This document shows, in pieces, positions 13,602 to 29,683 of a DNA stretch of 50,789 nucleotides; the first letter of the stretch is position 1, and the number at the start of each line of letters is the position of its first letter. This DNA is from an uncultured Oscillospiraceae bacterium (lineage in GTDB: Bacteria; Bacillota; Clostridia; Oscillospirales; Oscillospiraceae): positions 1 through 50,789 of the forward strand of contig CALWYM010000094.1 in NCBI GenBank assembly GCA_944385775.1, given 5' to 3'. The notes beneath the pieces were generated by a model. That model saw only the letters and a list, made by a program, of their open reading frames with translations. It ran no database searches and was not told the DNA's origin. Made by a program: the position numbers and the translations under genes.

Positions 13602-14177
13602 TTATCTGATATAAGTTACACTCTTTGCTTCATCATAAGTATGCGGAACCTTCTCCATGTTCTTATGACCAACAGCAATAACAACAGCGTACTCATAATT
13701 TTCCGGGAAACCTAACGCCTTTGCAAAGGTCTCCTTCTTCTCCCCTTCCATAGCAGCCTTAACAGAACCCACAATCAGGCTGCCAAGACCCATGGACTGA
13801 GCTGCCAGGGCAATATTCTCAACAGCAATTCCCGCGTCAAGCTTACCCCAGACCATATTCTTATCGCTGGAAATGAAAATCACCGTAGGAGCATTATAAT
13901 AACTGTTAATGGGGTTAGCAAAAATTGCCTTTTTCTCCTCCTCAGTTTTCTTGTCCTCGGCAAGAAGTCTGCGCTTTTCAGCTTCAATCTCACCAATAAC
14001 GGGATGATTTCCGTCTACCACGGAAAAGTGAATTTCCTGACGGTTAGCAGCAGTAGGAGCCTGAAGTCCTGCCGTGATAAGAGTCTTAATCTCCTCATCG
14101 GTGAGCTTTACGTCAGTATAAGCTCTTGTGGAGCTGCGTTTAGCAATAGCTGTCAATACTTCGTTCAAAGCAATCAT
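13602..14177 (-). CDS. Nitroreductase-family oxidoreductase
   Basis: RSSTRAY...LQAPTAANRQ motif typical of the FMN nitroreductase fold. Length 191 aa. Confidence 0.85.
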   Translation of the reverse strand: MIALNEVLTAIAKRSSTRAYTDVKLTDEEIKTLITAGLQAPTAANRQEIHFSVVDGNHPVIGEIEAEKRRLLAEDKKTEEEKKAIFANPINSYYNAPTVIFISSDKNMVWGKLDAGIAVENIALAAQSMGLGSLIVGSVKAAMEGEKKETFAKALGFPENYEYAVVIAVGHKNMEKVPHTYDEAKSVTYIR

Positions 14178-14233
14178 CCTCTCATTATTTTATGTTCTCA
14201 GTATACAATGAAGTTTTAAAATAATCAATAGTT

Positions 14234-15226
14234 TTATGCGACCTGAGTCTCATCATATTTGTCAAAATCTCTAAAGAATTTCAAAACGGTATCCTCATAA
14301 GCCCTCCTGGCAACCAGAAAGCTCATTCCATGGTCAGCCCCGGGGACTATAAGCATTCTCTTTGGACCTGAACAGGCGGCATAATTAAGGTATGTCATGG
14401 ATACCGGAACAAACCTGTCAGACGTTCCATGGATAAGCAAAACCGGAAGTCTTGTCCTTCTGAGAGAATCAATAGTGGTAACATTTTTTACATCAAGGTC
14501 AAGCTTTCGCTTTGCAATATCTCTGGCAACTGTGCCTATAACACCGTACCCCATATGCAAATTATCATTTGCCACATGACGCCAAATATCATCAGCAGAG
14601 GTGTACCCGCAGTCAGCCATTATTCCCTTTACGCAGCCCGGCAGAGCCAAATCCGATGCCATAAGCACGGTTGAAGCCCCCATTGAAATTCCCGCAAGGT
14701 AAACAGGCAGATTTTTAGTATTTCTCTCCGCAATCCAATTTGCCCATTTCACGCAGTCATAACGCTCAGTTATGCCAAATCCCATGTAATCTCCCTGGCT
14801 TCCGTTCTGACTGCGCTGCTCAACATACAAAACCGTACACCCATTATCGTACCAGAATCTGTTGCCTCCGGCAAAATCCTTGTACCAGGTAGACCTCCAT
14901 CCATGCATTGCCAGTATAATACGTTTCTCCCTCGGCGCTCTTCTAAGGTGCCCGACAAGCTCAAGACCATCATCGCTTAAAATGGTGACCTTCTCCATGG
15001 TCCCCTCCAGCTCCTTAAACTCGTCAACCAGACGGTCAACACCTGACTCTATCAGCCCACTCTCCATGTTACCGGAAAGCGCATCCTTGACTTTATCGTA
15101 AAGCGGAGGCTTTTCTCTGTTTACCGCAGTTTTAAGAAAAAACTTCGCAGCAGCGTAAGAGGCACCTGCAGCGGCTGCTACGGCTGTTCCGGCGCCAATT
15201 ATAACTTTTTTCCCTTTATTGTCCAT
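14234..15226 (-). CDS. Membrane-anchored alpha/beta hydrolase (COG1073-like)
   Basis: N-terminal Ala-rich TM segment and nucleophile elbow GISMGAS. I place the start at ATG 15226, 8 nt after AAAGGGA. The ORF-track start is 15244. Confidence 0.8.
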   Translation of the reverse strand: MDNKGKKVIIGAGTAVAAAAGASYAAAKFFLKTAVNREKPPLYDKVKDALSGNMESGLIESGVDRLVDEFKELEGTMEKVTILSDDGLELVGHLRRAPREKRIILAMHGWRSTWYKDFAGGNRFWYDNGCTVLYVEQRSQNGSQGDYMGFGITERYDCVKWANWIAERNTKNLPVYLAGISMGASTVLMASDLALPGCVKGIMADCGYTSADDIWRHVANDNLHMGYGVIGTVARDIAKRKLDLDVKNVTTIDSLRRTRLPVLLIHGTSDRFVPVSMTYLNYAACSGPKRMLIVPGADHGMSFLVARRAYEDTVLKFFRDFDKYDETQVA

Positions 15227-15298
15227 GGGTAAAATCCCTTTCATTTAAAGCTTTAGTATGATACTACCACTGAAAGCTCAACTGAAGGTAAACAAAAC

Positions 15299-15337
15299 AT
15301 AAAAAATGCCGCCACAGGAAAATTTCCCATGGCGGCA
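15299..15337 (-). terminator. Terminator closing the mdh...frd...carrier unit
   Basis: TGCCGCCA (15307-15314) pairs with TGGCGGCA (15330-15337), extendable with G-U pairs. TTTTTT follows on the minus strand. Confidence 0.75.
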
Positions 15338-15342
15338 AGCTT

Positions 15343-16572
15343 TTAAAACAATAATGCAATCATCTGAGACACCAGTACCACAATAATCAGCGCAACAGGG
15401 TAAGTAGAAGCATACGATGCTGCCACGTCCTCACTGCCGGCAACATGAATCAGCGTGCCAAGCGCAGGAGTACTTGTCATTCCTCCAGTAATGGATCCAA
15501 GGCTGTTGAAAAGAGCCAGCTTAAGCACGTGCCTACCGAAAAGGTAACCGATAATCATCGGAACACTGGTCATCAGAACGCCGTAGAAGAAGTAGATAAG
15601 CTGGAAGCTCTGAATAAAGCTCTCTCCGGCAGAGACTCCCGCTCCAATAAGGAACAACATAAGTCCCAGTTCTCTAAACTCCTTCAAGGTTATTTCCAGG
15701 GGCATTATACTTACCCGTCCTATTCGCCCAAAGTGACCGAACATCAATGCGATAAGCAGACATCCGCCTGTTGTTGTAAGGGAGAAAGTAGTGCCGGAAA
15801 GACCGGAGCCCGTCATCGGTATCTTAATGGACCCCACAAACACACCGATAACAGCAGCCAGAGCGAAAGGCATAATTCCGAAATCGTCCATTTCCAGAAG
15901 CGTTCCAGTGTACGCCTTTCTCTTTATGTCTCCCTTATCTTGAGAAATTTTTGCAATTTCTTCGGGAATATTCGCCTTAGTAAGTTTGGGCATCAGCTGG
16001 ACAAACAGAACCACACCGATAACGCCAAATATGTAGGCAATACCGTACCCTACGCTTACAATGTCCTCAAGCTCCGGTGCGACAGAAGCCTTGGAAGCAG
16101 AAAACGCAGGGGTACTTGTCATGGCTCCGCTGAAAAGTCCCACAACCATTGCCGTAAGTCTTGAGTAATCAGTCTCCCCGGTGGCTCTACCAATATATAT
16201 ACACGCCACAGCGGCAATTCCGCCAGAGATAATGATGACAAGACCCATTAAAACATAACTCTTAAAATTCTTCTTTAGGTTAGCGAAAAAGTTTGGTCCC
16301 GCTATAAAGCCTACGGAAGTAACAAAGAGTATGAGACCCATGTTTTCAATAATCTTAAGGGCATTTTTTGTGTAGCCTTCAGTGGCTGCTGCAAGGTCAT
16401 CATAAAACAAGCAGCCGTAAATTATAGCTATCAGGAAAACACCGGCTGTACCGAGACTGATTCCCCTGAAAGTAATTCTTCCCACTACATAGCCCAAAGC
16501 AGCTATTGCCATAACGCTGAACATGAGAAAGCTGACACCCGTAACGGAGATATATCCCCCAAATAAATTCAT
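15343..16572 (-). CDS. AAE-family (Asp-Al_Ex / YidE-YbjL-SucE-type) carboxylate carrier, short form
   Basis: Two repeated permease halves (...GISLGTAGVFLIAII... and ...RELGLMLFLIGAGVSAGESF...). The start is ATG 16572, with AGGAGGAAA inside the 3' end of the upstream gene. The ORF-track extension to 16656 overlaps that gene. Confidence 0.8.
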   Translation of the reverse strand: MNLFGGYISVTGVSFLMFSVMAIAALGYVVGRITFRGISLGTAGVFLIAIIYGCLFYDDLAAATEGYTKNALKIIENMGLILFVTSVGFIAGPNFFANLKKNFKSYVLMGLVIIISGGIAAVACIYIGRATGETDYSRLTAMVVGLFSGAMTSTPAFSASKASVAPELEDIVSVGYGIAYIFGVIGVVLFVQLMPKLTKANIPEEIAKISQDKGDIKRKAYTGTLLEMDDFGIMPFALAAVIGVFVGSIKIPMTGSGLSGTTFSLTTTGGCLLIALMFGHFGRIGRVSIMPLEITLKEFRELGLMLFLIGAGVSAGESFIQSFQLIYFFYGVLMTSVPMIIGYLFGRHVLKLALFNSLGSITGGMTSTPALGTLIHVAGSEDVAASYASTYPVALIIVVLVSQMIALLF

Positions 16573-16573
16573 T

Positions 16574-18172
16574 TTATTTCCTCCTGGTGTAGTCAGGCAG
16601 CAGCTTCGGTGAAACTGCCTCGGTCTCAACTCCAGCGTCGGAGAGCTCCTTCTCAAATTCCTCTATATGCTTAAGGGTAAGCTTTGAAGTAGTGACGGTT
16701 TTGCTAAGCTCAGCCGCATTTCTTCCGGCGCTTCTGCCGAATACAATAATATCCAGCAGTGAGTTGCCCATAAGACGGTTTCTGCCGTGGATTCCTCCGA
16801 CAGCTTCGCCTGCTACAAACAGGTGTGGTACATTTGTGGTGGAGCCGTCAAGATTAATATCAAGTCCACCGTTCTGATAATGCTGAGTTGGGTAAACGAG
16901 AATAGGCTCCTTACGAATATCAATTCCATACTTTCCGAACATTCTCATCATAGCAGGAATTCTCTTCTCGATAGTGCCCTCACCACCGATAATCTCAATC
17001 ATAGGCGTATCAAGCCATACAGCCTTGCCGTTACCGGTATCCACTCCGTTTCCTCTATCGCCGCACTCTCTGATAATGCTGGCAGCAGAAACGTCACGGG
17101 TCTCCAGAGGATGCATAAATACCTCACCCTTGGCATTAACAAGTCTCGCGCCAACACTTCTTACCTTCTCGGTAACAAGTGCGCCGAAAATCTGCTCGGG
17201 ATACGCAGCTCCGGTTGGGTGATACTGAATAGTATCAGGATAGAGGAGCTTTGCGCCTACACGATAACCCAAAACAAGCCCGTCAGCAGTTGCACCGTAA
17301 TGGTTGGAGGTGGGGAAGCCCTGATAGTGCATACGTCCAGCGCCTCCGGTGGCAATAATAACGACCTTTGCTCTGGCAACAAGAAGCTCCCGTGTTTCCA
17401 TATTCATAAGAACTGCGCCGGCAGCGTTACCGTTTTCGTCAAGAATAAGCTCAATAGCGGAGGTAAAGTCCACAACGGGAATCTCACGGTTTAATACCTC
17501 GTCACGGAGAGTACGCATAATCTCAGCGCCGGAATAGTCCTTTGCTGCGTGCATTCTCTTTCTGGAAGTTCCGCCGCCGTGAGTTGTAATCATGTTGCCC
17601 TGAGCGTCCTTATCAAACTCAACGCCCAGCTCGCTAAGCCACTCGATGGCGTCCGGTGCCTCTGTCACAAGCTTTGAGAGCAAATCTCTTTTTGCGGCAA
17701 AATGACCTCCACCGTATGCGTCGAGGAAGTGAATTGCAGGAGAATCGTTCGGCTTATCAGCAGCCTGGATTCCGCCCTCCGCCATCATGGTATTGGCGTC
17801 GCCGATTCTAAGCTTCGTAACAATCATTACGGAAGCACCGGCATTGTTAGCTTCAATAGCGGCAGAAGAACCTGCTCCGCCACCACCGATAATAAGCACG
17901 TCTACATCATAATCGGGGTTTTCAAGGTCAACGGAGTCAGCAGTAATTCTGCTGTGGGCCTCGAGCATCTCCGCCAATTCCTTAGGAACACTTTCGCCCT
18001 TATTAGGACCGACTCTCAGCTCCCTGAATTCCTCTCTCTTGTAGTCAGGATGATACTGTTTAAGGAGAGCGTCCTTTTCTTCAGCCGTCATTCTGCGAGG
18101 CTCCATGGCAATGTTTCTTGCTCTTGCCTCTTCAACTATCTTAATTGCTTCTTTTAAGCTTTCAGGATACAT
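16574..18172 (-). CDS. Fumarate reductase/succinate dehydrogenase-type flavoprotein (FrdA/TfrA-like, soluble)
   Basis: Motifs DVLIIGGGGAGSSAA, MAEGGIQAA, IQYHPTG, TEKVRSVGA, HYQNGG and GIHGRNRLMGNSLLD align with FrdA/SdhA FAD-binding and catalytic motifs. RBS GGGAGGG. Confidence 0.85.
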   Translation of the reverse strand: MYPESLKEAIKIVEEARARNIAMEPRRMTAEEKDALLKQYHPDYKREEFRELRVGPNKGESVPKELAEMLEAHSRITADSVDLENPDYDVDVLIIGGGGAGSSAAIEANNAGASVMIVTKLRIGDANTMMAEGGIQAADKPNDSPAIHFLDAYGGGHFAAKRDLLSKLVTEAPDAIEWLSELGVEFDKDAQGNMITTHGGGTSRKRMHAAKDYSGAEIMRTLRDEVLNREIPVVDFTSAIELILDENGNAAGAVLMNMETRELLVARAKVVIIATGGAGRMHYQGFPTSNHYGATADGLVLGYRVGAKLLYPDTIQYHPTGAAYPEQIFGALVTEKVRSVGARLVNAKGEVFMHPLETRDVSAASIIRECGDRGNGVDTGNGKAVWLDTPMIEIIGGEGTIEKRIPAMMRMFGKYGIDIRKEPILVYPTQHYQNGGLDINLDGSTTNVPHLFVAGEAVGGIHGRNRLMGNSLLDIIVFGRSAGRNAAELSKTVTTSKLTLKHIEEFEKELSDAGVETEAVSPKLLPDYTRRK

Positions 18173-18186
18173 CTGTTTGCCCTCCC

Positions 18187-18861
18187 TTACTCTTCTATGT
18201 CACGATTGTTGTAAAGCTCCTGGAGCTCCTCAACAGGCTTCTGCATAAGCGCCTCAATAAGGTCATTAAATGCGCCGTCATTGATTTCCTTAACTCTCTC
18301 CTTAAGGTGAGCACACTCAGGCTGAATATACTTTCCGTTAAGCCTGCGTGCCAGCATTGCAACCTGCGGATGGGAAATTCCAGCAGGACATCTGGAGGAA
18401 CAGATACCGCACATAATGCAGTCAAAGCTCTCATTTGCGCACTTTTCAAAATCGCCTCTCTGAGCATATGCAATGTACTGCATAACGTTAAGACCCTGAG
18501 GGCAGCTCTTTGTGCAGGCGTTGCAGCCTATGCAGGAATAAATCTCAGGATAAAGCTGCATCATAACCTGCTGAGCGGGCTTAATCTTCTCAATATCGTA
18601 TATTTCCTTCACCAGCGGGAAGAAAGGCAGAGTTGCAACATACATATTATCCTCTACCTTGGTCTGGCAGGCAAGGCATGCGTGAAGCTCTCTGTCGCCC
18701 TTTATACGGTAGATAGTAGCGCAGGCGCCGCAAAATCCGTTACGGCAACCGCAACCGCGAATAAGCTGGTATCCCGCATACTCCATGGCGGTCATTATAG
18801 TAAGATTGTCCGGAACCTGATATCTCTTTCCGAAAAGAAATACGTTTACCATATTCTCCAT
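18187..18861 (-). CDS. FrdB/SdhB-like iron-sulfur subunit (one 2Fe-2S motif plus two CxxCxxCxxxCP motifs)
   Basis: Cluster motifs CGCRNGFCGAC...C, CIGCNACTKSCP and CIMCGICSSRCP. I place the start at ATG 18861 (MENMVNV...), 6 nt after GAAGGAGA. The ORF-track start 18912 overlaps the upstream gene. Confidence 0.8.
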   Translation of the reverse strand: MENMVNVFLFGKRYQVPDNLTIMTAMEYAGYQLIRGCGCRNGFCGACATIYRIKGDRELHACLACQTKVEDNMYVATLPFFPLVKEIYDIEKIKPAQQVMMQLYPEIYSCIGCNACTKSCPQGLNVMQYIAYAQRGDFEKCANESFDCIMCGICSSRCPAGISHPQVAMLARRLNGKYIQPECAHLKERVKEINDGAFNDLIEALMQKPVEELQELYNNRDIEE

Positions 18862-18880
18862 AAATATTCTCCTTCGTTTA

Positions 18881-19714
18881 TCAATACTCGTCTGGCAGCT
18901 CATCCAGCTCATCGAAACGGAAAACAGGTCCGTCCTTGCAGACGTACTTTGTTCCCACGTTGCACCTTCCGCACTTTCCGATGCCGCACTTCATTCTCAT
19001 CTCAAGGGTGGTATAGACCTGGGTCTTATCAAAGCCCAGCTCATAAAGTGCCGCAAGGGAGAGCTTAATTGCGATAGGAGGACCACAGAGAATGGCAATT
19101 CTGTCTGTGTCAAAGCCTATCTCCGTAAGGAAAGCGGGCAAAAAGCCTACGTGACCGTCCCAGTCGGGAGTTGAGCGGTCAGTGGTAAGGTGGAGACCAA
19201 AATTATCCTCCTTTGCCCACTCATTAACCATCTCATCATAGTCCAGAGTATCTGATTTAGTTCTGGAGCCCACAACTACGTCAATTCTACCATATTTATC
19301 ACGATTAGCGCGGCAGTAGTTGATTACAGAGTGGAGAGGAGCAAGACCAACGCCACCTGCGATAAACAGAAGATTCTTCCCTACAAACTCTGTATCTACC
19401 GGGAAAGGCTTGCCATAGGGTCCGCGGATAGTCACCATCTGCCCCGGCTCCGCCTGGTGGAGCCACTCAGTTACACAGCCGCACTTTTTAATGGAGAACT
19501 CCATATATTCCTTTACCGTCGGCGAGGAGGTTATGGAAAACATAGCCTCACCCACACCGGGTATTGAAAGCATAGCGCACTGACCGGGCTTATGCTCAAA
19601 GGGCTTTTCACCGTCCGGAGTAACTACACGGAAGGTCTTAATATCAGGTGTCTCGGCACGAATTTCGGTTATAACACCAAGCTTAGGTACCAGAGGCTCA
19701 AAAATTTCACTCAT
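18881..19714 (-). CDS. FlxA-like FAD/NAD(P)H-binding 2Fe-2S oxidoreductase (AsrB / sulfhydrogenase-gamma / PyrK type)
   Basis: Ferredoxin-reductase-type fold (FIAGGVGLAPL) and C-terminal CGIGKCGRCNV. The start overlaps the upstream stop (ATGAGTGA). Confidence 0.8.
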   Translation of the reverse strand: MSEIFEPLVPKLGVITEIRAETPDIKTFRVVTPDGEKPFEHKPGQCAMLSIPGVGEAMFSITSSPTVKEYMEFSIKKCGCVTEWLHQAEPGQMVTIRGPYGKPFPVDTEFVGKNLLFIAGGVGLAPLHSVINYCRANRDKYGRIDVVVGSRTKSDTLDYDEMVNEWAKEDNFGLHLTTDRSTPDWDGHVGFLPAFLTEIGFDTDRIAILCGPPIAIKLSLAALYELGFDKTQVYTTLEMRMKCGIGKCGRCNVGTKYVCKDGPVFRFDELDELPDEY

Positions 19715-20735
19715 CGGCTTTACCTCCCAGCGTTTTCATTACCTTTACTATGTTCATATGTATCGGACAGCTCTTGAGACATCTTCCGCAGCCTACGCAG
19801 CTGAACATACCATCGTAATTTGCCGGATAGTACACAAGCTTATGCATAAAACGCTGTCTGAAACGCTCAAGCTGTGTAAGTCTGGGCTGACCGGCACTCA
19901 TCTGGGTAAACTCGGAATACATACAGCTGTCCCAGCAGCGGAAACGGATAACATCCTTACCGGTATTAAAATCCTTAATATCATAGCACTGACAGGTGGG
20001 GCATACAAAGGTGCAGGTTCCACAGCCAAGGCATGACTCGGAAAGGCTCTTCCACTCCGGTCTGTCAAAATACTCATCAGTCTTGTCTCCGCCGAAATTC
20101 TCAGCGGAAAGATTGCGAAGAGGCAGCTTCTCGGCAATTTTTTCAATTTTTGCCTTTATATCATCGGCCGCGTTATCGTCACAGCTTTCGGTAAACTCGG
20201 AAATAAGCTCCATGACCTTTTCGCCCTTTTCAGTATTGGCTTTCCAGAAAAGTTCATTTTCGCCTTTCCAAACCGTAACATCGCCGTACTCGCCGGCAGG
20301 GTCAATGCCAAATGTATGGCAGAAGCAGGTCTCAGACGGCTTTGAGCAGGCTACGGAAACAATGATTCCGTGCTTTCTTCTGGCTGCATAGTAACCGTCT
20401 CTCGGTTCGGAGAGGAATACGTTGTCAAGAACATCAAAGCTTCTCACATCACAGGGACGAACTCCGAAAACCACAAAGTCCTCATCGATTTTCGCTGTGT
20501 TCTTAAGCTCAATATTCTTACCGGAGACCTTAAACTTCATAAGGTCCTCAACCTGTGGGAAGAAGAAATCCTTAGGACTCTTAACTGTATTCAGTGCCTC
20601 GGACCACTTTTTGCCCTCCTCCCACCTGGTATAGTTTGCTCTGCCTGTGGGATCGTCTACCGGGAGGAACAGTGCCATAGACTCTGAAATCTTTGAGAAA
20701 ATGCTGTCAACGGAGGTCAGCAAACTTTTACGCAT
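19707..20735 (-). CDS. FlxB-like 4Fe-4S protein (AsrA / sulfhydrogenase-beta type)
   Basis: CLGCGTCTFVCPTCQC and CVGCGRCLKSCP. The start is ATG 20735, 9 nt after AGGGAGGGA and 1 nt after the upstream stop. Confidence 0.8.
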   Translation of the reverse strand: MRKSLLTSVDSIFSKISESMALFLPVDDPTGRANYTRWEEGKKWSEALNTVKSPKDFFFPQVEDLMKFKVSGKNIELKNTAKIDEDFVVFGVRPCDVRSFDVLDNVFLSEPRDGYYAARRKHGIIVSVACSKPSETCFCHTFGIDPAGEYGDVTVWKGENELFWKANTEKGEKVMELISEFTESCDDNAADDIKAKIEKIAEKLPLRNLSAENFGGDKTDEYFDRPEWKSLSESCLGCGTCTFVCPTCQCYDIKDFNTGKDVIRFRCWDSCMYSEFTQMSAGQPRLTQLERFRQRFMHKLVYYPANYDGMFSCVGCGRCLKSCPIHMNIVKVMKTLGGKADE

Positions 20736-20736
20736 A

Positions 20737-21732
20737 TTACATTCCCTCCCTTTCAAATACCTGACCCGGCTCAAGGTCACCTGTGGTATAGTCTACCAGC
20801 GGGGCTCTGGAGCCAACCTCCTTGCCGGCCTGATACTCGCCGTAGAAGGTATTTATATCCTTGATAAACTTACGATTAAGAAGATGAAGGGGAATATGCT
20901 GAGGACATACCCTTGAGCACTCTCCGCAGTCTGTACATCTTCCTGCGACATGGAACGCACGGATAATGTGGAACATTTGCTCCTCAAAGCTTGTAGCAGG
21001 AGCCTTATTTTCTGCGCCGGAGTTGGGGTTATTGAAAACGCACTTCTCACAGGTGCAGGCAGGGCACACATCACGGCAGGCATTGCAGCGAATACAGCGT
21101 GAAAGCTCGCCGCGCCAAAAAGCAAAGCGCTCGTCCGGTGTCATTGCCTCAAGCTCCGCTACCTTGCCAAAGCGGTTGCAATCCGGGTTCTCCTCGCCTT
21201 CCTCGCCGATAAGCTCGTCATAGCAAACATGTTTTTTGCTCTTGCAGCAAATACATCTCTCTGCCATAGCGTCCTCGTAGCTGACCGTTTTCGGCTCATC
21301 GTCATAGATAGTCTGAACCTTAAGACCGTCAGGTTCACAGCTTATGGATGAGATTCCGTCACCGGTTATGGCTCTTATCTTGGAAATATCAGCCATACCG
21401 TCACAGGATATGCCCACAACATACACCTTGCTGCGATCAATCCTGTGCTCAGTCAGAAGCTGGTTAAAGCTGTATGTGTCACAGGGCTTAAGAAAAGCAA
21501 GAATCTTGCCCTCAATCCCCAGCGTCTTCGTTACAAGATATTTTGAAAAGTTAGCTCCGCAGAAATCATTGAAAACGAAATTCTGCTCAATATCCTCCGC
21601 AGTGTAGAAAAGGGAGGGTGTGAGGTCGTAGCTGAACTCGCCCTCTCTCCAGCCCAAAACGGCTGATACTGTACCATCATTCAAAAGGGAGATGGCCTTA
21701 GAGGTGAGCATTTCACGGGTTATTCTTTGCAT
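20737..21732 (-). CDS. FlxC-like 4Fe-4S dicluster protein
   Basis: CIRCNACRDVCPACTC and CTDCGECSRVCP, with an FrhB-like N-terminal part. RBS GGAGGA. There is a 13-nt overlap with mvhD. Confidence 0.75.
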   Translation of the reverse strand: MQRITREMLTSKAISLLNDGTVSAVLGWREGEFSYDLTPSLFYTAEDIEQNFVFNDFCGANFSKYLVTKTLGIEGKILAFLKPCDTYSFNQLLTEHRIDRSKVYVVGISCDGMADISKIRAITGDGISSISCEPDGLKVQTIYDDEPKTVSYEDAMAERCICCKSKKHVCYDELIGEEGEENPDCNRFGKVAELEAMTPDERFAFWRGELSRCIRCNACRDVCPACTCEKCVFNNPNSGAENKAPATSFEEQMFHIIRAFHVAGRCTDCGECSRVCPQHIPLHLLNRKFIKDINTFYGEYQAGKEVGSRAPLVDYTTGDLEPGQVFEREGM

Positions 21733-22154
21733 CTCAGATCCTCCAGTCTCTTGTTTTCACCAAGGGCTGCCACAGCCTCAGTAAACTCGTTCATGGTCTG
21801 GGCAAACTTAGCGCCCTCAGCTGCGGAACACCACTCCACCCGGGTGCGCTCACGCTCAATTCCCAGGTAATCCAGCATGGAGAAAAGCAGTGCCATACGG
21901 CGGCGTGTGTAATAGTTGCCGGACGTATAGTGGCAGTCTCCCGGGTGGCAGCCGCAGAGAATAACGCCGTCTGCACCACGCTGGAAAGCACGGAGGACAA
22001 ACATCGGATTTACACGGCAGGAGCAGGGTACACGGATAATCTTTACATTATCAGGATAACTGAGTCGGTTATTACCGGCCAGGTCAGCTCCCGCGTAGCT
22101 GCACCAGTTGCAGCAAAATGCCACGATAAGGGGCTTATATTCGTTTACTTGCAT
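21720..22154 (-). CDS. mvhD: MvhD/FlxD-type iron-sulfur protein
   Basis: IVAFCCNWCSYAGADLAG...VPCSCRV...GCHPGDCHY is typical of the methyl-viologen-reducing hydrogenase delta subunit family. Length 144 aa. Confidence 0.9.
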   Translation of the reverse strand: MQVNEYKPLIVAFCCNWCSYAGADLAGNNRLSYPDNVKIIRVPCSCRVNPMFVLRAFQRGADGVILCGCHPGDCHYTSGNYYTRRRMALLFSMLDYLGIERERTRVEWCSAAEGAKFAQTMNEFTEAVAALGENKRLEDLRCKE

Positions 22155-24139
22155 ATTGCGTCTACCTCCGCCATAATCTGTGAAGTTGCAAAGCCCTTAA
22201 GGTCCATAGCGCCGGATGGGCAGGCAACAGTACAGGCTCCGCAGCCCTGGCAAACCGCCGGGTTGACCTGCGCCACACGTCTGACTCTGGTGGTACGGTC
22301 AGGCATACGGAATTCCTTATCAACATAGGTAATAGCGCCGTAAGGACATACCTTCTCGCAGGCTGAGCAGCCGTTACACATAAGCTCATTGCTCTCTGCA
22401 ACGCAGGGGTTACCGGTAAGCTTATCCTTGACGAGAAGACCTATAACCTTTGACGCGGCTGCGCCGGCCTGGGCTACCGTATCAGGAATATCCTTCGGTC
22501 CCTGGCAGGCTCCGGAAAGATATATACCGGCAGTTGGGCTCTCCACGGGACGGAGCTTTGGGTGAGCCTCGGTGAAGAAATCGTTAGTATCCATGCTGGC
22601 TGTAAGCATAGTTGCCAGTGAACGGGCAGACTCGTCAGGCTCAATGGCTGCTGCAAGAATGACCATATCGGCAGCAATATGAAGCTGCTTATTATCCAGA
22701 AGATCAGAGGCCTGGACCATAAGCTTATCTCCCTCGGGAGCAACCTTACCTACCATACCCTTTATGTAATGGACACCGTATTCCTCAACGGCACGGCGAT
22801 AGAACTCATCAAAGTTCTTGCCCGGTGTACGGACGTCGATGTAAAATACATAGACCTCTGTATCGGGATACTTATCACGGACCAGCATTGCGTGCTTTGC
22901 AGTATACATACAGCAAATCTTGGAACAATACTCCTTACCCTTCTCAGCACAAGCCTCGCAGCGGGAACCGACACACTGTACAAACACAAGGGTATGTGGA
23001 TGCTTTCCGTCCGACGGGCGGAGCAGTGTGCCCTGAGTAGGACCGGCGGCGTTCATAAGACGCTCAAACTCAAGGCTTGTTACAACATCCTTGGACTGGC
23101 TGTAAGCATACTCGTCAAACTTATCCATACTGATGGGATTAAAGCCCGTTGCCACAACAATGGCACCGTACTTTTCCTCAATAATCTCGTCCTGCTGATT
23201 GTAGTCGATAGCGCCCACTGTGCAGACAGTAGAACAGAGACCGCACTTTCCGGTCTTCTTCATAATACAATAGTTGGGGTCGATGGTGGCTACCTTCGGC
23301 ACTGCCTGAGCAAATGGGATATAGATTGCGGTACGGTTGTCAAGACCCAGATTAAACTCATTTGGGACTTTTTTCATCGGACACTTTTCCATACAAAGTC
23401 CGCAGCCGGTGCACACATCTTCCTTAACAAAACGGGCCTTTCTCTTTATGGTGACATCAAAGTTACCCACAAAGCCCTTAACGTCAGTTACCTCACTGTA
23501 AGAGAAAATTCTGATATTTTCATGCTGACCAACGTCAACCATTTTAGGAGTCAAAATACAGGCCGCGCAGTCCAGTGTAGGGAAGGTCTTATCAAGCTGA
23601 GCCATCTTGCCGCCAATAGTAGGCTTCTTTTCTACAATGTCAACTTTAAAGCCTGCGTCGGCAATGTCAAGGGCCGTCTGGATACCGGCTATACCTCCGC
23701 CGATAACAAGGGCTCTTTTTGTAACAGGAGTCTCGCCTGCTGTAAGAGGGGTATTAAGGTTGAGCTTTGCAATAGCGGCTCTCCCCAAAATAATAGCCTT
23801 TTCCGTACCGGCTTCCATATCCTTATGTACCCAGGAGCACTGCTCGCGGATATTGGCGATTTCCACCATGTAGGGATTGAGTCCCGCGGCAGCGGCAGTC
23901 TTACGGAAGGTGGTCTCATGCATACGGGGTGAGCAGGAGCAGACAACCACGCCGGTGAGCTTGTACTCATGGATAGCGTTTTTAATCATATCCTGACCTG
24001 CCTGAGAGCACATATACTGATAGTTGTCAGAATAAACTACTCCCGGCTCATTTTTAAGAGCCTCGGCAACTCTCTTTACGTCAACGGTGCCGGCGATGTT
24101 CGTACCGCACCAGCACACAAAAACACCTATTCTCTGCAT
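22145..24139 (-). CDS. hdrA: Heterodisulfide reductase subunit A-like flavoprotein
   Basis: MvhD-like N-terminal domain (VFVCWCGTNIAG), FAD motif ALVIGGGIAGIQTALD...TLDCAACILTPKM, and inserted plus C-terminal ferredoxin motifs (CTGCGLCMEKCP, CNGCSACEKVCP, CQGCGACTVACP). Confidence 0.92.
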   Translation of the reverse strand: MQRIGVFVCWCGTNIAGTVDVKRVAEALKNEPGVVYSDNYQYMCSQAGQDMIKNAIHEYKLTGVVVCSCSPRMHETTFRKTAAAAGLNPYMVEIANIREQCSWVHKDMEAGTEKAIILGRAAIAKLNLNTPLTAGETPVTKRALVIGGGIAGIQTALDIADAGFKVDIVEKKPTIGGKMAQLDKTFPTLDCAACILTPKMVDVGQHENIRIFSYSEVTDVKGFVGNFDVTIKRKARFVKEDVCTGCGLCMEKCPMKKVPNEFNLGLDNRTAIYIPFAQAVPKVATIDPNYCIMKKTGKCGLCSTVCTVGAIDYNQQDEIIEEKYGAIVVATGFNPISMDKFDEYAYSQSKDVVTSLEFERLMNAAGPTQGTLLRPSDGKHPHTLVFVQCVGSRCEACAEKGKEYCSKICCMYTAKHAMLVRDKYPDTEVYVFYIDVRTPGKNFDEFYRRAVEEYGVHYIKGMVGKVAPEGDKLMVQASDLLDNKQLHIAADMVILAAAIEPDESARSLATMLTASMDTNDFFTEAHPKLRPVESPTAGIYLSGACQGPKDIPDTVAQAGAAASKVIGLLVKDKLTGNPCVAESNELMCNGCSACEKVCPYGAITYVDKEFRMPDRTTRVRRVAQVNPAVCQGCGACTVACPSGAMDLKGFATSQIMAEVDAICK

Positions 24140-24154
24140 TCTTCTCTCCCCTCC

Positions 24155-24547
24155 TTACTTCGCGTATTTGCGGAACGCAGTGACTATGGCCTGCTGTGGC
24201 AAATCCTCATCAACTATGGGAGGAATATCCTCAGGCTTCAGGTGATTCTTTCCCTGCTGCCTGATAACCGCAAGCCTGACAGCCTCTACAAGCTTTGCGG
24301 GCTCGACGCCTCTTGGGCATCTGTCCACACAGGCAAAGCAGGTCAGGCACTTATAAATACTCTTGCTTTTCATAAGGGGCTCAAGCTCGCCGTTTTCCAC
24401 CATATATACAAACTGGTGAGGGTGATACTCCATCTCATCATATGCCGGGCAGGTTGCGCTGCACTTGCCGCATCTCATGCATTTTCTTGGATTAACTCCG
24501 CTCATACGGACGATCTCAGCCTGAAGGTTACTATTTTTATTATCCAT
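24155..24547 (-). CDS. hdrC: Heterodisulfide reductase subunit C-like (2x4Fe-4S)
   Basis: CMRCGKCSATCP and CLTCFACVDRCP. Length 130 aa. The ATG directly abuts the hdrB stop (TAAATG). Confidence 0.85.
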   Translation of the reverse strand: MDNKNSNLQAEIVRMSGVNPRKCMRCGKCSATCPAYDEMEYHPHQFVYMVENGELEPLMKSKSIYKCLTCFACVDRCPRGVEPAKLVEAVRLAVIRQQGKNHLKPEDIPPIVDEDLPQQAIVTAFRKYAK

Positions 24548-25333
24548 TTACGCCATCTCCTTCACGCCAAGTGCCTCGGCCATAAGCTCAGTAAAGTACA
24601 CAACCGGTACCTCTGAACCGTTTTTCACGAGGTTATATTTACAAAGCGGGCAGGCGGTAACAAGTCTGTCGACGCCGTGTCCCTTTGCACTTTCAGTAAT
24701 AATCTTGCTCTTTCTTCCGGCAAACTCCGGATCCTCTATAACAGTATATCCGCCGCAGCACTCATTTCTGTACGGATACACAACAGGAGTAGCTCCCAGC
24801 GCTCTTATCAAATCCTCAATAATCTGCGGATTTTCAGGGTCGTCCATTTTCATAACGGAATTTGGACGGAGAAGCAGGCAGCCGTAATAGGCACCAATCT
24901 TCTGCCCCTTAAGAGGGTTTACTACCTTTTCACGAACCTTATCAAAACCAACAACGTCACGGATAAGCTCAAGGTAATGATAAACCTGGGTCTCCCCTGC
25001 ATATGGCTCCTCTGGAGCCATATAATTGTTTACCTTCATTCTTACCTCTGCGTCAGTAGCCATAGTGTAATTGGTCTGCTTTATTACGTTATGACAGGCA
25101 GAGCACACGGTAACAAGCGCCTGTCCCTTGTCCTTTGCCGCCTTTAGTGCCCTTACAGAAGAAAGCTTTGTTGCGGACTCGTTTTTAGCCGTGGTAAAAG
25201 CCCCGCCGCAGCATTGCCATTCCTCTATCTCTTCCAAAGTGATACCCAGGATCTCCGCACATTTGCGTGCATATGTATCAAGGTCCTTAGCGTGGGTCTT
25301 CAGGGTACACCCTGGGAAGTAACTAACTTTCAT
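24548..25333 (-). CDS. hdrB: Heterodisulfide reductase subunit B-like (two CCG domains)
   Basis: Two complete C...CCG...CxxC motifs: PGC..QCCGG..CSAC and YGC..ECCGG..CPLC. The start is ATG 25333, 6 nt after GGGGGA. The ORF-track start is 25354. Confidence 0.9.
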   Translation of the reverse strand: MKVSYFPGCTLKTHAKDLDTYARKCAEILGITLEEIEEWQCCGGAFTTAKNESATKLSSVRALKAAKDKGQALVTVCSACHNVIKQTNYTMATDAEVRMKVNNYMAPEEPYAGETQVYHYLELIRDVVGFDKVREKVVNPLKGQKIGAYYGCLLLRPNSVMKMDDPENPQIIEDLIRALGATPVVYPYRNECCGGYTVIEDPEFAGRKSKIITESAKGHGVDRLVTACPLCKYNLVKNGSEVPVVYFTELMAEALGVKEMA

Positions 25334-25382
25334 ATTGTTCCCCCTTAATACCATGAAAAACTATACTTTAAAAACGGCTTAT

Positions 25383-25405
25383 GGGAAGCGAAAAATACGC
25401 TTCCC
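25383..25405 (-). terminator. Weak intra-operon hairpin between fumC and hdrB
   Basis: GGGAAGCG (25383-25390) pairs with CGCTTCCC (25398-25405). On the minus strand the T-run (GTTTTT) starts only 8 nt after the stem. Confidence 0.3.
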
Positions 25406-25422
25406 TGCCAGTATTTACTAAA

Positions 25423-26799
25423 TTACACCATCTCTTCAGGATGGAACACTTCGTCAAACTTTTCAGCTGTTAAGAAGCCAAGTTCAACGCAGGCCTGCTT
25501 GAGAGAGATATTATCCTTAAATGCCTTCTTTGCTGTCTTAGCGGCGTTCTCGTACCCAATATAAGGATTAAGAGCTGTTACCAGCATAAGAGAATTGTGG
25601 AGATTATTGTACATCTTTTCCTTATTTGCCCTGATTCCCACAGCGCAGTTCTTGTTAAAGGAAACAATAGCCTCGGCAAGCAGTCTGGAAGACTGAAGGA
25701 AATTATATATGCACACGGGCATAAACACGTTAAGTTCAAAATTTCCCTGGCTTGCGGCCATTCCAACTGCAACGTCGTTGCCCATAACCTGAACTGCCAC
25801 CATAGTAACAGCCTCGCACTGGGTGGGATTGACCTTACCCGGCATAATTGAAGAACCGGGCTCATTCTCAGGAATTGTTATCTCACCGAGACCCACTCTC
25901 GGACCGCTGGCAAGCCAACGGACATCGTTTGCAATCTTCATCATATCACAGGCCAGTGCCTTAATTGCACCATGGGCAAAAACAAGCTCATCCTTTGATG
26001 TAAGTGCGTGGAACTTGTTGGGAGCAGTTACAAAGGATTTACCGGTCAGCTGAGATACTTTCTGAGCTACCAGGGAGTCAAACCCCTTTGGAGCGTTAAG
26101 ACCGGTACCAACAGCTGTTCCGCCGAGGGCAAGCTCATGTAGAGGTCTCACCGCCAACCTTATAAGCTCAACATCACGCTCAAGGCTCGTTCTCCAGCCA
26201 CTTATCTCCTGGCTGAACTTAATGGGCGTTGCGTCCTGAAGATGTGTTCTGCCGCTTTTAACAATACCCTCGTGCATTTTCTCAAGATTCTTAAAAGTCT
26301 CAATAAGGGTTTCCACAGCGGGGATAAGCTTATCCTCAAGAGATATAACCGCACAGATGTGCATTGCCGTGGGGAATGTATCGTTAGAGGACTGGCTCAT
26401 GTTTATGTCGTCATTTGGGTGGAGCAGTTTCTTCCCGGCAATCTGGTTACCGCGGTTTGCAATAACCTCGTTTGCGTTCATGTTTGACTGGGTTCCAGAA
26501 CCGGTTTGCCATACAACCAGCGGGAAATGGTCATTGAGAGATCCGGAAATAACCTCATCACAGGCTGCGGAAATGGCAGCCAGCTTCTCATCGGTCATCT
26601 TCTGAGGATTAAGCTCATGGTTTGCCTGAGCCGCGGCCTTTTTCAGAATTCCGAACGCATGGGTTATTTCCCTCGGCATAGTCTCGATACCTACGCCAAT
26701 TTCAAAGTTCTCATGGCTGCGCTGAGTCTGTGCAGCCCACAGGCGGTCAGCAGGAACTTTGACCTCGCCCATGGAATCATGTTCTATGCGATATTCCAT
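25423..26799 (-). CDS. fumC: Class II fumarate hydratase
   Basis: Signature GSSIMPGKVNPTQCE, plus the typical N-terminus MEYRIEHDSMGEVKVP and QTGSGTQSNMN. Length 458 aa. Confidence 0.96.
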   Translation of the reverse strand: MEYRIEHDSMGEVKVPADRLWAAQTQRSHENFEIGVGIETMPREITHAFGILKKAAAQANHELNPQKMTDEKLAAISAACDEVISGSLNDHFPLVVWQTGSGTQSNMNANEVIANRGNQIAGKKLLHPNDDINMSQSSNDTFPTAMHICAVISLEDKLIPAVETLIETFKNLEKMHEGIVKSGRTHLQDATPIKFSQEISGWRTSLERDVELIRLAVRPLHELALGGTAVGTGLNAPKGFDSLVAQKVSQLTGKSFVTAPNKFHALTSKDELVFAHGAIKALACDMMKIANDVRWLASGPRVGLGEITIPENEPGSSIMPGKVNPTQCEAVTMVAVQVMGNDVAVGMAASQGNFELNVFMPVCIYNFLQSSRLLAEAIVSFNKNCAVGIRANKEKMYNNLHNSLMLVTALNPYIGYENAAKTAKKAFKDNISLKQACVELGFLTAEKFDEVFHPEEMV

Positions 26800-26816
26800 A
26801 TGCTTTATTCTCCTAA

Positions 26817-27731
26817 TTATTTAAGACCGGCAATCGTGCTCTTAAGTGCTTCGGCACTGGCTTTGAGCTTCTCAACTTCCTCATCAGTGAGAGGCAGCAT
26901 AAGCTTTCCGCTTATACCGTTTCTACCCACAAAATTAAGGGTTGAAAGGCACACGTCAGAAATACCGTATTCACCATTCATCATAGCGGAAACAGGAATT
27001 GCCACGCCGGCATTATTGAGAATGCTCTTGCAGATGTAAGCTGTGGTATCTGCCACCGCATAGAAAGTTGCGCCCTTTCTTGAGATAACAACGGATCCGG
27101 ACTTCTTTACAAAATCAGTAATCTCTTCCTTGTCAATATCGGGAGCAAACTGGGCAAGAGGAACGCCTGCGATGTTCGCTGTGCTCCACGGAATAAACGA
27201 CGAGTCACCATGCTCGCCAAAAACATGAGCATGAACATTCTGCTGGCTTACACCAAGGTCTGTGGAAAGACGTGCGCGAAGACGTGATGTATCAAGCAGT
27301 GTTCCGGAGCCGATAACATGGCTCTCAGGAAGACCGGAATACTTGCAGAATGTATAGGTTATAACGTCTACCGGGTTGCCGACAATAACATAAATTGCGT
27401 TGGGGGCATACTTTGTAATCTCTGGAATAATCTGATTTTTGGTAACATCAAAGTTTACCTGCGCGAGGTCAAGTCTTGTCTGACCGGGCTTACGACCGAT
27501 TCCGGAAGAAATGATTACAATGTCAGAGTCTGCTGCATCGGGATACTCACCTGCTACAACCTTGCAGTCAAAGGTGTAGGGAGTGCCCTGATAAACATCC
27601 ATTGCCTCGCCGAGAGCTTTCTCCTCATTAATGTCAATGAGAACAATCTCCGTAGCGATATGCTGGGTAACGAGAGTGTGAGCAACTGCTGCACCGACAT
27701 TACCTGCACCAATAATCGATATTTTACTCAT
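26817..27731 (-). CDS. mdh: LDH-like malate dehydrogenase (Arg at the substrate-discriminating position)
   Basis: IIGAGNVGAA, SGIGRKPGQTRLDL and FGEHGDS. The start is ATG 27731, 8 nt after GGAGGG. The ORF-track ATG at 27746 is part of that RBS. Confidence 0.8.
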   Translation of the reverse strand: MSKISIIGAGNVGAAVAHTLVTQHIATEIVLIDINEEKALGEAMDVYQGTPYTFDCKVVAGEYPDAADSDIVIISSGIGRKPGQTRLDLAQVNFDVTKNQIIPEITKYAPNAIYVIVGNPVDVITYTFCKYSGLPESHVIGSGTLLDTSRLRARLSTDLGVSQQNVHAHVFGEHGDSSFIPWSTANIAGVPLAQFAPDIDKEEITDFVKKSGSVVISRKGATFYAVADTTAYICKSILNNAGVAIPVSAMMNGEYGISDVCLSTLNFVGRNGISGKLMLPLTDEEVEKLKASAEALKSTIAGLK

Positions 27732-27915
27732 TGTGATACCCTCCATTTAATGAAATTTAGTTTGTTTTGCGACTTAATTGACTTTACCCGGCAGGTCTTC
27801 GGCTTACGCCACTATCCTACCATATGCCCGGCTCTTTGTCGATGTTAAAAAATTAGCAGGACAGGTGATGAATTACACCTCATCTTACCGCATTCTTTTC
27901 ACCAGGCTCATTATA

Positions 27916-27944
27916 ATTCTAACAACTTGTTAATTAATTGTCAA
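27916..27944 (-). promoter_or_regulatory. Near-consensus sigma-A promoter with an overlapping Rex-like inverted repeat
   Basis: The minus strand reads TTGACA (27939-27944), a 17-nt spacer, then TAGAAT (27916-27921). The plus strand at 27927-27944 reads TTGTTAATTAATTGTCAA. Confidence 0.55.
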
Positions 27945-28072
27945 TTATTTATTTGCACAAACTATACCCCATTATTTTAGGTATGCTTTGTATGCTTGTG
28001 GGTAGACGCGTTTAACTAATACATATTTTTAATCATTTTTCTAAATTAAATTTTATATCTAATTTACCAAAA

Positions 28073-28108
28073 GCAAAAAACCGCCGCAGGCACAAAAACC
28101 TGCGGCGG
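28073..28108 (-). terminator. Terminator after glgA
   Basis: CCGCCGCAGG (28081-28090) pairs with CCTGCGGCGG (28099-28108). TTTTTTGCTTTT follows on the minus strand. Confidence 0.85.
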
Positions 28109-28117
28109 CGACATTTT

Positions 28118-29584: not shown

Positions 29585-29683
29585 CGTTTTCCCTCCCTTT
29601 CCGACAAAGCTGACCTGTAATTTTTCTTATAAAGCCTGATTTTCCGGGGGACATACAAATCCCCCGGTAAAATAAGTACATTC

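Follow-up and report, generated by a model that had tools for sequence, protein, structure and literature searches.

Architecture of the gene cluster

The window analysed here, the whole stretch of 50,789 nt of contig CALWYM010000094.1 (assembly GCA_944385775.1) from an uncultured Oscillospiraceae bacterium, carries on its minus strand a cluster of twelve genes which combines a malate dehydrogenase and a fumarase with a full set of Flx-Hdr subunits, a pair of proteins related to fumarate reductase (termed FrdA-like and FrdB-like in the following) and a carrier, and which is a candidate for a soluble, ferredoxin-coupled NADH:fumarate reductase system. The genes were assigned from the listing of open reading frames (ORFs) combined with Pfam and NCBIfam profile scans, and start codons were picked by the presence of a Shine-Dalgarno (SD) sequence. 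All twelve are co-directional, beginning with mdh (26817-27731; malate dehydrogenase) and fumC (25423-26799; class II fumarate hydratase) and continuing with hdrB (24548-25333; HdrB-like protein with two CCG motifs), hdrC (24155-24547; HdrC-like 2x[4Fe-4S] subunit), hdrA (22145-24139; flavin adenine dinucleotide (FAD) subunit with ferredoxin domains), mvhD/flxD (21720-22154; [2Fe-2S] connector subunit), flxC (20737-21732; iron-sulfur subunit), flxB (19707-20735; iron-sulfur subunit of the sulfhydrogenase beta/AsrA type), flxA (18881-19714; flavoprotein for NAD(P)H binding with a [2Fe-2S] site at the C-terminus), the frdB-like gene (18187-18861; iron-sulfur (FeS) protein), the frdA-like gene (16574-18172; flavoprotein) and the gene of an AAE carrier (15343-16572; Asp-Al_Ex family).

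The cluster is delimited by a near-consensus promoter and a strong terminator, as had been stated in a preceding reading of this DNA made from its letters alone (the sequence-only reading); the ORF listing and a signal scan agree with that statement and with the twelve co-directional minus-strand genes in between. The promoter (27916-27944, minus strand) is of the sigma-70 type (TTGACA-17-TAGAAT, 11 of 12 positions, with a TG extension) and represents, within the 15.5 kb searched (14000-29500), the joint best match and the sole 11/12 match with a TG extension. Behind the carrier gene an intrinsic terminator (15307-15337, minus strand) has a stem of 14 bp, 8 of which are GC pairs, and a tail consisting of the T-run TTTTTTAT.

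Spacers of 17 nt and of 68 to 89 nt separate mdh from fumC and fumC from hdrB, respectively. Further downstream, hdrB and hdrC directly abut (0 nt, TAAATG), followed by a gap of 15 nt (hdrC/hdrA), overlaps of 10 nt (hdrA/mvhD) and 13 nt (mvhD/flxC), a gap of 1 nt (flxC/flxB), an overlap of 8 nt (flxB/flxA, ATGAGTGA) and gaps of 19 nt (flxA/frdB), 14 nt (frdB/frdA) and 1 nt (frdA/carrier). The range from a 13-nt overlap to a 19-nt gap previously given for the junctions between hdrB and the carrier is exactly reproduced with the SD-supported starts, among them the ATG codons of mdh (27731, preceded by GGAGGG), hdrB (25333) and flxB (20735). The tight junctions in this part are compatible with translational coupling, and from the arrangement as a whole we infer that the twelve genes form one transcription unit. 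Inspection of ORFs and junctions left no room in the unit for any further gene, and a DsrC-like C-terminal Cys motif was found in no ORF of the window, in line with the earlier claim that no dsrC-like or other thiol-carrier gene is present. Pfam scans of all twelve gene products likewise bear out the claimed lack of a membrane anchor, the AAE carrier being the only membrane protein among them.

An 18-bp palindrome resembling a Rex box (TTGACAATTAATTAACAA, 27927-27944) overlaps the -35 box of the promoter. It matches the operator consensus TTGTKAANNNNTTMACAA of Rex, a repressor sensing NADH/NAD+, at 12 of 14 positions, with about one such match expected by chance per window. Sites of at least 12/14 within 400 nt upstream of mdh are present in 11 of 44 related loci, compared with 2 of 204 randomly chosen coding segments. 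This enrichment of a Rex-type operator upstream of mdh in the relatives is suggestive, the controls being coding and not AT-rich intergenic DNA. A riboswitch or attenuator in the 178-nt leader of mdh was considered and found unsupported, as the fold stability of the leader is not unusual (z = -1.3) and a search of the whole window with all Rfam families gave no match. Two overlapping promoter-like sites (10/12) lie on the coding strand within hdrA (23616-23670); they are probably due to chance, because 30 such sites were found in the region against 21 expected.

The FrdA-like and FrdB-like proteins

The FrdA-like protein comprises 532 residues, of which only 91-472 are covered by an FAD_binding_2 domain, and Pfam detects no Succ_DH_flav_C domain (PF02910). 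Its ranking among the NCBIfam models is headed by TfrA (339 bits), followed by SdhA/FrdA (284 bits) and NadB (262 bits); the match to the TfrA model NF004900 extends over positions 6-426 of 546 and stays below the cut-off of 718, as the NadB match stays below that of TIGR00551 (452.75). When aligned to solved SdhA/FrdA structures, the protein keeps HPT318-320, the proton donor R338 and the substrate-binding residues H431 and R466, and all of these are invariant in two family alignments reaching down to 39% identity. The His to which FAD is covalently linked in SdhA of M. smegmatis is replaced by Asn127, and the FAD is therefore predicted to be bound non-covalently, as expected for a reductase. 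The AlphaFold model (AF2) is of high score (predicted local distance difference test (pLDDT) 90.9, predicted template modelling score (pTM) 0.91), the N-terminal extension included; its top match in the PDB is FrdA of E. coli (1kf6_A, E 4e-35, template modelling score (TM) 0.70), and NadB follows in 38th place.

L-aspartate oxidase was rejected on account of the score, this fold rank, the gene context and the NadB-specific Glu121, which aligns with His198 (the E. coli NadB reference sequence used is identical to 1chu in 539 of 540 residues). An adenosine phosphosulfate (APS) reductase is unsupported, with no AprA-type model among the best 25 of 44 NCBIfam matches. Catalytic residues, fold and family ranking together uphold the previous designation of the pair as a FrdBA-like fumarate reductase and not an L-aspartate oxidase or APS reductase, and they support the FrdA-like protein as the putative fumarate-reducing catalytic subunit. 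Its N-terminal extension (residues 1-88) contains the conserved residues L36, H41, P42, G55, N57 and G59 and is without counterpart in the structural alignments to SdhA, FrdA and NadB. The extension may stand in for the missing C-terminal domain or dock FrdB or Hdr.

The FrdB-like protein (224 residues) consists of an N-terminal [2Fe-2S] part (Fer2/Fer2_4/Fer2_3) and a Fer4 dicluster part, which most resembles that of RnfC. Two CxxCxxCxxxCP motifs predict two [4Fe-4S] clusters; a 3Fe-4S motif is not found, Pfam detects no CCG domain, and the score against TIGR00384 (35.9) lies below the cut-off of 88. Three separate proteins of the unit match the TfrB model at consecutive positions, the FrdB-like protein at 19-148, HdrC at 126-220 and HdrB at 376-477, and for this reason the TfrB of methanogens looks like a fusion of FrdB, HdrC and HdrB. 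That the FrdB-like and FrdA-like proteins work together is suggested by the existence of a natural fusion of 727 residues (P0122), which joins an FrdB-like N-terminal part of about 220 residues to an N-extended FrdA-like part.

The Flx-Hdr module and the flanking enzymes of the unit

The seven contiguous genes from hdrB to flxA represent the full FlxABCD-HdrABC subunit set according to Pfam and NCBIfam. HdrA matches the NCBIfam model HdrA2 with 800 bits over residues 3-663, i.e. at full length, and contains a Pyr_redox_2 domain as well as an inserted (235-308) and a C-terminal (584-645) Fer4 domain; flavin-based electron bifurcation is presumed to occur on this subunit. HdrB carries the CCG domain PF02754 twice, and the motif CCGG...CxxC is complete in both, corresponding to non-cubane [4Fe-4S] sites; the scores with the NCBIfam models HdrB and SdhE are 135 and 130 bits, respectively. 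HdrC is recognized by Fer4_17/Fer4_8 and by TIGR03290 (HdrC, 59 bits), MvhD/FlxD by PF02662 (FlpD, 188 bits). FlxC has a Fer4 dicluster at 209-280, FlxB is matched by PF17179 (Fer4_22, 106 bits) and by ShyB/HydB/AsrA models, and FlxA is composed of FAD_binding_6, NAD_binding_1 and DHODB_Fe-S_bind domains with matches of the HydG/AsrB type.

The product of the first gene consists of Ldh_1_N and Ldh_1_C domains and passes the NCBIfam cut-offs of both lactate dehydrogenase (LDH) and malate dehydrogenase (MDH) models, including the L-lactate dehydrogenase models TIGR01771 and NF000824. At the specificity position 102, where Gln is typical of LDH and Arg of MDH, it has an Arg (GIGRKPGQTR), and so have all 46 of 46 orthologues. 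LDH was rejected because of this conserved Arg102, and on the basis of the sequence the gene product is an NAD-dependent malate dehydrogenase of an LDH-like family. Annotation pipelines would probably call it LDH, and a systematic misannotation is likely. FumC is identified by TIGR00979 (fumC_II, 715 bits, cut-off 664.75) and by its Lyase_1 and FumaraseC_C domains. The carrier contains two Asp-Al_Ex permease repeats (PF06826, 200 bits) and exceeds the cut-off of the duplication domain TIGR01625 (138.8 against 71.95); the central TrkA-C domains of YidE/AspT were found by neither Pfam nor NCBIfam. It is presumed to be a succinate exporter.

Conservation of the cluster and distant relatives

In species-representative genomes, scanned at one per species, a relative of the FrdA-like protein is encoded in at least 584 stretches. 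The best 80 of these were surveyed for synteny by tblastn with all twelve window proteins; their FrdA-like proteins are 78-84% identical to that of the window, and the loci stem from metagenome-assembled genomes (MAGs) of Clostridia from gut, rumen or caecum (Acutalibacteraceae, Oscillospiraceae, Congzhengia, Ructibacterium and others). Wherever the contig was long enough, the order mdh-fumC-hdrBCA-mvhD-flxCBA-frdBA was found, and the carrier gene follows downstream of frdA in 52 of the 80 loci. The neighbours of the cluster in the window, namely alpha/beta hydrolase, nitroreductase and glgA, practically never occur at these loci. As the gene order is kept while the flanking genes differ, the cluster is maintained as a unit. 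The sequence-only reading had named synteny with hdr/flx as a test of its interpretation, and this synteny is conserved in all informative loci among the 80 genomes of related species.

The family of N-extended FrdA proteins is broad, with members in WOR-3, Chloroflexota, Thermodesulfobacteriota, Armatimonadota, Bacillota, Bathyarchaeia, Asgard archaea and MAGs of Halobacteria. The nearest FrdA cluster at 50% identity outside the own clade (P0121) is archaeal, with members from Bathyarchaeota, Asgard and Halobacteria MAGs at 55-60% identity. Compared with the archaeal counterparts, the identities amount to 57-60% for FrdA, 49-56% for FrdB, 48-52% for HdrA, about 42% for HdrB and 57-59% for MvhD. 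Together with identities of about 50-59% for HdrA and MvhD across domains, the archaeal nature of the nearest FrdA cluster suggests that the entire Hdr-Frd block was transferred between domains.

Among ten inspected gene neighbourhoods of distant FrdA relatives, several place the pair beside enzymes of C4-dicarboxylate or tricarboxylic acid (TCA) cycle metabolism. A complete Bathyarchaeota genome shows malic enzyme and fumarase alpha and beta followed by frdBA; in Thermodesulfobacteriota frdAB is accompanied by aconitase, isocitrate dehydrogenase (IDH) and 2-oxoacid:ferredoxin oxidoreductase; in Chloroflexota a cytochrome-b/Fer4 protein, frdBA and genes of the succinyl-CoA-synthetase/ATP-citrate-lyase type lie together, with fumarase nearby; and in a Eubacteriales MAG, where an hdrC-CCG pair lies upstream, frdBA is positioned between IDH and aconitase. 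Other neighbourhoods link the pair directly to Hdr. The order frdBA-hdrCBA-mvhD-mvhG-mvhA-hycI was found in Bathyarchaeia and hdrA-mvhD-mvhG-mvhA-hycI-hdrC-hdrB-frdB-frdA in an Asgard archaeon. Another Bacillota MAG combines hdrA-hdrC-hdrB, a protein of 1474 residues resembling GltD and HdrA, mvhD, a Fer4 protein and frdBA. This large protein (locus L090, 3300-7724) consists of GltD-like NAD(P)H-binding and HdrA-like FAD/FeS domains and may serve the Hdr-Frd core as a third type of donor module. Judged from these neighbourhoods, FrdAB is a portable fumarate/succinate module that has repeatedly been plugged into an HdrABC-MvhD core with varying donor, namely Flx for NADH, Mvh for H2 and a GltD-like protein for NAD(P)H.

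The hdrA of the Asgard archaeon (locus L088, 2617-4539) had not been called as a gene; its product is 52% identical to HdrA of the window. It is interrupted by a single in-frame TGA at 4141, at a position held by Leu in the window protein; recoding to selenocysteine, decay to a pseudogene or an error of sequencing could be the cause.

Relation to known systems

The concept of a ferredoxin-coupled fumarate reductase operon is not new, since it was published in 2019/2020 for Pseudoclostridium (Hungateiclostridium) thermosuccinogenes and a similar idea was put forward in 2019 and 2024 for tubeworm symbionts. A preprint by Koendjbiharie and van Kranenburg from 2019 reportedly describes a fumarate reductase coupled to ferredoxin via Flx-Hdr in P. 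thermosuccinogenes. The "succinate operon" of this organism encodes a fumarate hydratase (RS03365), seven Flx-Hdr proteins (RS03360-30), two fumarate reductase subunits (RS03325-20) and a putative succinate transporter (RS03315); its genes change jointly in expression according to RNA-seq, with a reported rise of about 4-fold under CO2 limitation that is not significant for every subunit (PMC7282089, 2020). In the same work, which cites the 2019 preprint, the coupling between fumarate reductase and ferredoxin is used as an assumption, and H2 is reported to suppress succinate formation (PMC7282089). Because of this suppression the physiology of P. thermosuccinogenes fits ferredoxin coupling. 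In a comparison of gene order, the operon matches that of the window in number and order of the genes from fumC on, and the proposed function is identical; the window differs by the addition of mdh in front and by its host, which belongs to uncultured mesophilic gut and rumen Clostridia.

In tubeworm symbionts, tfrAB and korABCD are interleaved with flxABCD-hdrABC and were proposed to form an electron-shuttling complex (PMC6315080, 2019), and co-expression of the cluster was shown later (PMC11636981, 2024). In a 2026 survey, the link between Flx-Hdr and fumarate reductase in the tubeworm symbionts and Thioflavicoccus is still termed a suggestion (PMC13147460). As in the window, a fumarate reductase of the AB type is clustered with Flx-Hdr there, within a cluster of the reductive TCA (rTCA) cycle, and electron transfer from NADH to fumarate and ferredoxin is proposed. 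However, the host there is a gammaproteobacterium that grows autotrophically by the rTCA cycle and has a 2-oxoglutarate:ferredoxin oxidoreductase (OGOR) in the cluster, whereas the window unit has a fermentative context, contains mdh, fumC and an exporter and lacks OGOR.

The FlxABCD-HdrABC complex of Desulfovibrio vulgaris was reportedly described by Ramos et al. in 2015 with the disulfide of DsrC as presumed acceptor. All seven of its subunit types occur in the window with the expected domains, but the unit contains a fumarate reductase in place of a DsrC-like gene. Methanothermobacter reportedly possesses a thiol:fumarate reductase, TfrAB, which uses the thiols of coenzyme M (CoM-SH) and coenzyme B (CoB-SH) (Heim et al. 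1998). TfrA is the best family match of the FrdA-like protein, TfrB aligns piecewise with proteins of the unit, and both systems are anchor-less and independent of quinones. In contrast to the single TfrB polypeptide with its own CCG domains, the FeS subunit of the window is devoid of CCG domains and these reside on the separate HdrB; moreover, the FrdA-like protein stops about 120 residues short of the C-terminal end of the TfrA model and carries an N-terminal extension of 88 residues. The MvhAGD-HdrABC complex of methanogens is a structurally characterised bifurcating complex. It has the HdrABC-MvhD core in common with the window unit, and archaeal relatives of the window FrdAB are encoded beside mvhAGD-hdrABC; the methanogenic complex, however, uses H2 as donor and CoM-S-S-CoB as acceptor, in place of which the window offers FlxABC for NADH and, likely, fumarate via FrdAB. 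FrdABCD of E. coli (1kf6), finally, is the best structural match with identical catalytic residues, from which the window system differs by the lack of a membrane anchor, of the His for covalent FAD attachment and of the C-terminal flavoprotein domain, and by a third cluster motif of the 4Fe-4S instead of the 3Fe-4S type.

In archaeal genome papers the relatives of FrdAB are annotated as TfrAB, and Hdr-Mvh is treated apart. None of the papers in the literature searched contains the phrase "electron-bifurcating fumarate reductase", and in this literature no characterised enzyme of such composition is reported, in agreement with the sequence-only reading.

Proposed mechanism and alternatives

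We propose that the gene products of the unit form a reductive branch in the cytoplasm which, independently of quinones, leads from oxaloacetate to succinate for export and the last step of which is performed by a multi-subunit NADH:fumarate oxidoreductase composed of FlxABCD, HdrABC and FrdAB, and we assign a probability of roughly 0.6 to this reading. The interpretation given earlier is thereby supported as far as sequence evidence allows, and none of the computational checks which the sequence-only reading had named as possible refutations contradicts it. According to the sequences, the Arg102-type Mdh would convert oxaloacetate to malate and FumC malate to fumarate, while the FrdA-like protein would provide the fumarate/succinate active site with its non-covalent FAD and the FrdB-like protein a wire of one [2Fe-2S] and two [4Fe-4S] clusters. 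FlxA, predicted to bind NAD(P)H, would serve as the entry flavoprotein, from which the electrons of NADH might pass via FlxB, FlxC and MvhD/FlxD to the flavin of HdrA and be bifurcated there. The high-potential electron would then proceed via HdrC, HdrB and FrdB to the FAD of FrdA and to fumarate, and the low-potential electron via the ferredoxin domains of HdrA to ferredoxin (Fd), corresponding to a net reaction of 2 NADH + fumarate + 2 Fd(ox) -> 2 NAD+ + succinate + 2 Fd(red).

The transfer from Hdr to Frd probably occurs directly between the proteins and not by a free thiol/disulfide couple, because a relay would need two CCG sites, of which only HdrB has one, and because the FrdB-like protein, HdrC and HdrB map onto a single TfrB polypeptide. 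The CCG clusters of HdrB might act as an in-line relay or constitute a side site. A hydrogenase or Rnf complex encoded elsewhere in the genome would take up the electrons of reduced ferredoxin and so recover part of the free energy that NADH:fumarate reduction provides, roughly -68 kJ/mol, and succinate would be exported by the AAE carrier. The potential of ferredoxin is taken as about -450 mV. At this value, the formation of succinate and 2 Fd(red) from 2 NADH, fumarate and 2 Fd(ox) is exergonic by about -43 kJ/mol; the reverse reaction, a confurcating oxidation of succinate, is not feasible. Potentials of +33 mV for fumarate and -320 mV for NADH are given in PMC5861303.

Several points weigh against the proposal. 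The FrdA-like protein remains below every curated NCBIfam cut-off, the FrdB-like protein is only weakly similar to SdhB (E 5e-6), and both CCG motifs of HdrB are intact, which leaves room for a thiol/disulfide role. To our knowledge, FlxABCD-HdrABC is known from genetics and physiology and not from demonstrated in-vitro bifurcation, and the literature searched contains no biochemical data on this or a homologous complex. The gap of 68-89 nt between fumC and hdrB could house an internal start or stop of transcription, and genes for ferredoxin, Rnf and hydrogenase are not found in the window. Among the distant relatives, the WOR-3 pair (locus L081, 7889-12715) is flanked by a gene resembling the alpha subunit of electron-transfer flavoprotein (ETF), a small Fer4 protein and an acyl-CoA dehydrogenase, so that a link to fumarate is not obvious, and two loci carry the FrdAB-like pair alone. 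On account of these loci the module is not always linked to Hdr, and its substrate is not everywhere proven.

The most serious alternative, which we regard as unlikely, is a non-bifurcating soluble NADH:fumarate reductase, in which Flx and Hdr merely wire NADH to FrdAB and the energy is dissipated. A characterised example is the five-subunit, soluble, NADH-driven fumarate reductase (NADH-FRD) of Hydrogenobacter thermophilus (Miura et al. 2008, via PMC13147460), which shares with the window system the multi-subunit composition and the FrdA and FrdB homologues, but the genes of which are scattered and which is reported as a simple NADH:fumarate reductase without coupling to ferredoxin. Use of the ferredoxin site is also unproven by sequence. 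Nevertheless, the full-length HdrA with both ferredoxin domains and MvhD represent the architecture of a bifurcating Hdr, seven extra subunits would be costly for a simple wire, the archaeal Hdr-Frd arrangement is joined to the Mvh hydrogenase, the classic bifurcating partner, and the suppression of succinate formation by H2 in P. thermosuccinogenes (PMC7282089) argues in the same direction.

Quite unlikely is a thiol relay, in which Flx-Hdr would act as a true, bifurcating disulfide reductase on a thiol cofactor or carrier encoded elsewhere and FrdAB, perhaps together with HdrB, would reoxidise the thiol with fumarate, by analogy to TfrAB and Hdr of methanogens. It would be in keeping with the two intact CCG motifs of HdrB and with TfrA as best family match, and the models for Endoriftia permit a DsrC-like intermediary (PMC11636981). 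Of the two CCG sites needed, however, the unit encodes one, the FrdB-like protein being without a CCG domain, and a DsrC-like ORF is absent from the window. Synthesis of CoM or CoB is not known in Clostridia, Bathyarchaeia and Asgard archaea. That these cofactors are not known to be made has been remarked for related archaea (PMC9723716).

Two independent enzymes might also be merely co-transcribed without forming a physical complex, Flx-Hdr working with another acceptor and FrdAB with ferredoxin or another donor. Hdr-free FrdAB-like pairs in several lineages imply that other partners are possible, but the strictly conserved gene order with tight junctions across the boundary between Flx and Frd, the recurrence of hdr-frd adjacency in different gene orders in three further lineages and the lack of a donor-binding subunit in FrdAB itself render this scenario very improbable. 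Least credible of all is the action of the pair on another substrate, as an L-aspartate oxidase or another enoate or dicarboxylate reductase, which could appeal to scores below the curated cut-offs of all Sdh, Frd, Tfr and NadB models, to the unusual N-terminal extension with the missing C-terminal domain and to the ETF and acyl-CoA dehydrogenase adjoining the WOR-3 relative, but which is contradicted by four invariant dicarboxylate-binding and catalytic residues, the absent Glu121 of NadB, the presence of mdh and fumC in the same unit, fumarase or TCA-cycle genes adjacent in four distant lineages and fumarate reductases as top fold matches.

The proposed NADH:fumarate oxidoreductase of the window might be part of a larger theme. 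HdrABC-MvhD and the N-extended, anchor-less FrdAB could constitute a cross-domain supermodule with exchangeable donors, i.e. FlxABC for NADH in hundreds of species of gut and rumen Clostridia, MvhAG for H2 in Bathyarchaeia and Asgard archaea, and the GltD/HdrA-like protein for NAD(P)H in another Bacillota lineage. This supermodule would perform thiol-independent, flavin-based bifurcation with fumarate in the role of the high-potential acceptor; it would represent the first Hdr with a physiological acceptor other than a disulfide and a quinone-free "fumarate respiration" via ferredoxin and Rnf or hydrogenase. We put this generalization forward tentatively and would grant it somewhat less than an even chance.

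Implications for energy conservation

Reduction of fumarate by NADH releases about 60-68 kJ/mol. Classical organisms conserve this energy with a membrane-bound enzyme and with quinones, compounds that many Clostridia presumably lack. If the proposal is true, a bifurcating soluble fumarate reductase would explain energy-conserving succinate formation in quinone-lacking Clostridia, the energy being kept as reduced ferredoxin for H2 production or Rnf-driven ion pumping. Bifurcation of the Hdr type would thereby be extended to an acceptor other than a disulfide. Succinate is a major metabolite of gut and rumen and a signal to the host, and the enzyme, provided that it works as proposed, would be quantitatively relevant in gut ecosystems in view of the at least 584 stretches. 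Through its H2-linked variants the system also bears on energy metabolism in Bathyarchaeia and Asgard archaea.

The operon of the window is a further case, with mdh added, of a described system known from genes and expression, and its host lineage belongs to abundant uncultured gut Clostridia. Added here are the strict conservation of the operon within the surveyed genomes of related species, the evidence from active site and fold, the Rosetta-stone mapping onto TfrB and the recurrence of Hdr-FrdAB in archaea, with donors linked to H2, and in a further Bacillota lineage, with one linked to NAD(P)H. With the concept itself in print since 2019, the value of the present instance lies in the supporting comparative evidence and in the choice of experimental systems.

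Further features of the window

Immediately upstream of the unit, a glycogen operon (glgB, glucan phosphorylase, glgC, glgD and glgA; 28118-36578, minus strand) ends with glgA at a strong, bidirectional terminator (28080-28109). A dicarboxylate/amino-acid:cation symporter of the DctA/GltP type (DAACS family; 38701-40047), 11 kb from the cluster, is a possible importer of C4-dicarboxylates or aspartate. The GC content of the window is 45%. Finally, spoVT (1363-1902), spoIID (37651-38649) and the gene of a SCIFF radical-SAM maturase (49254-50639) are encoded in the window, for which reason the source is considered to be a spore-forming member of the Clostridia.

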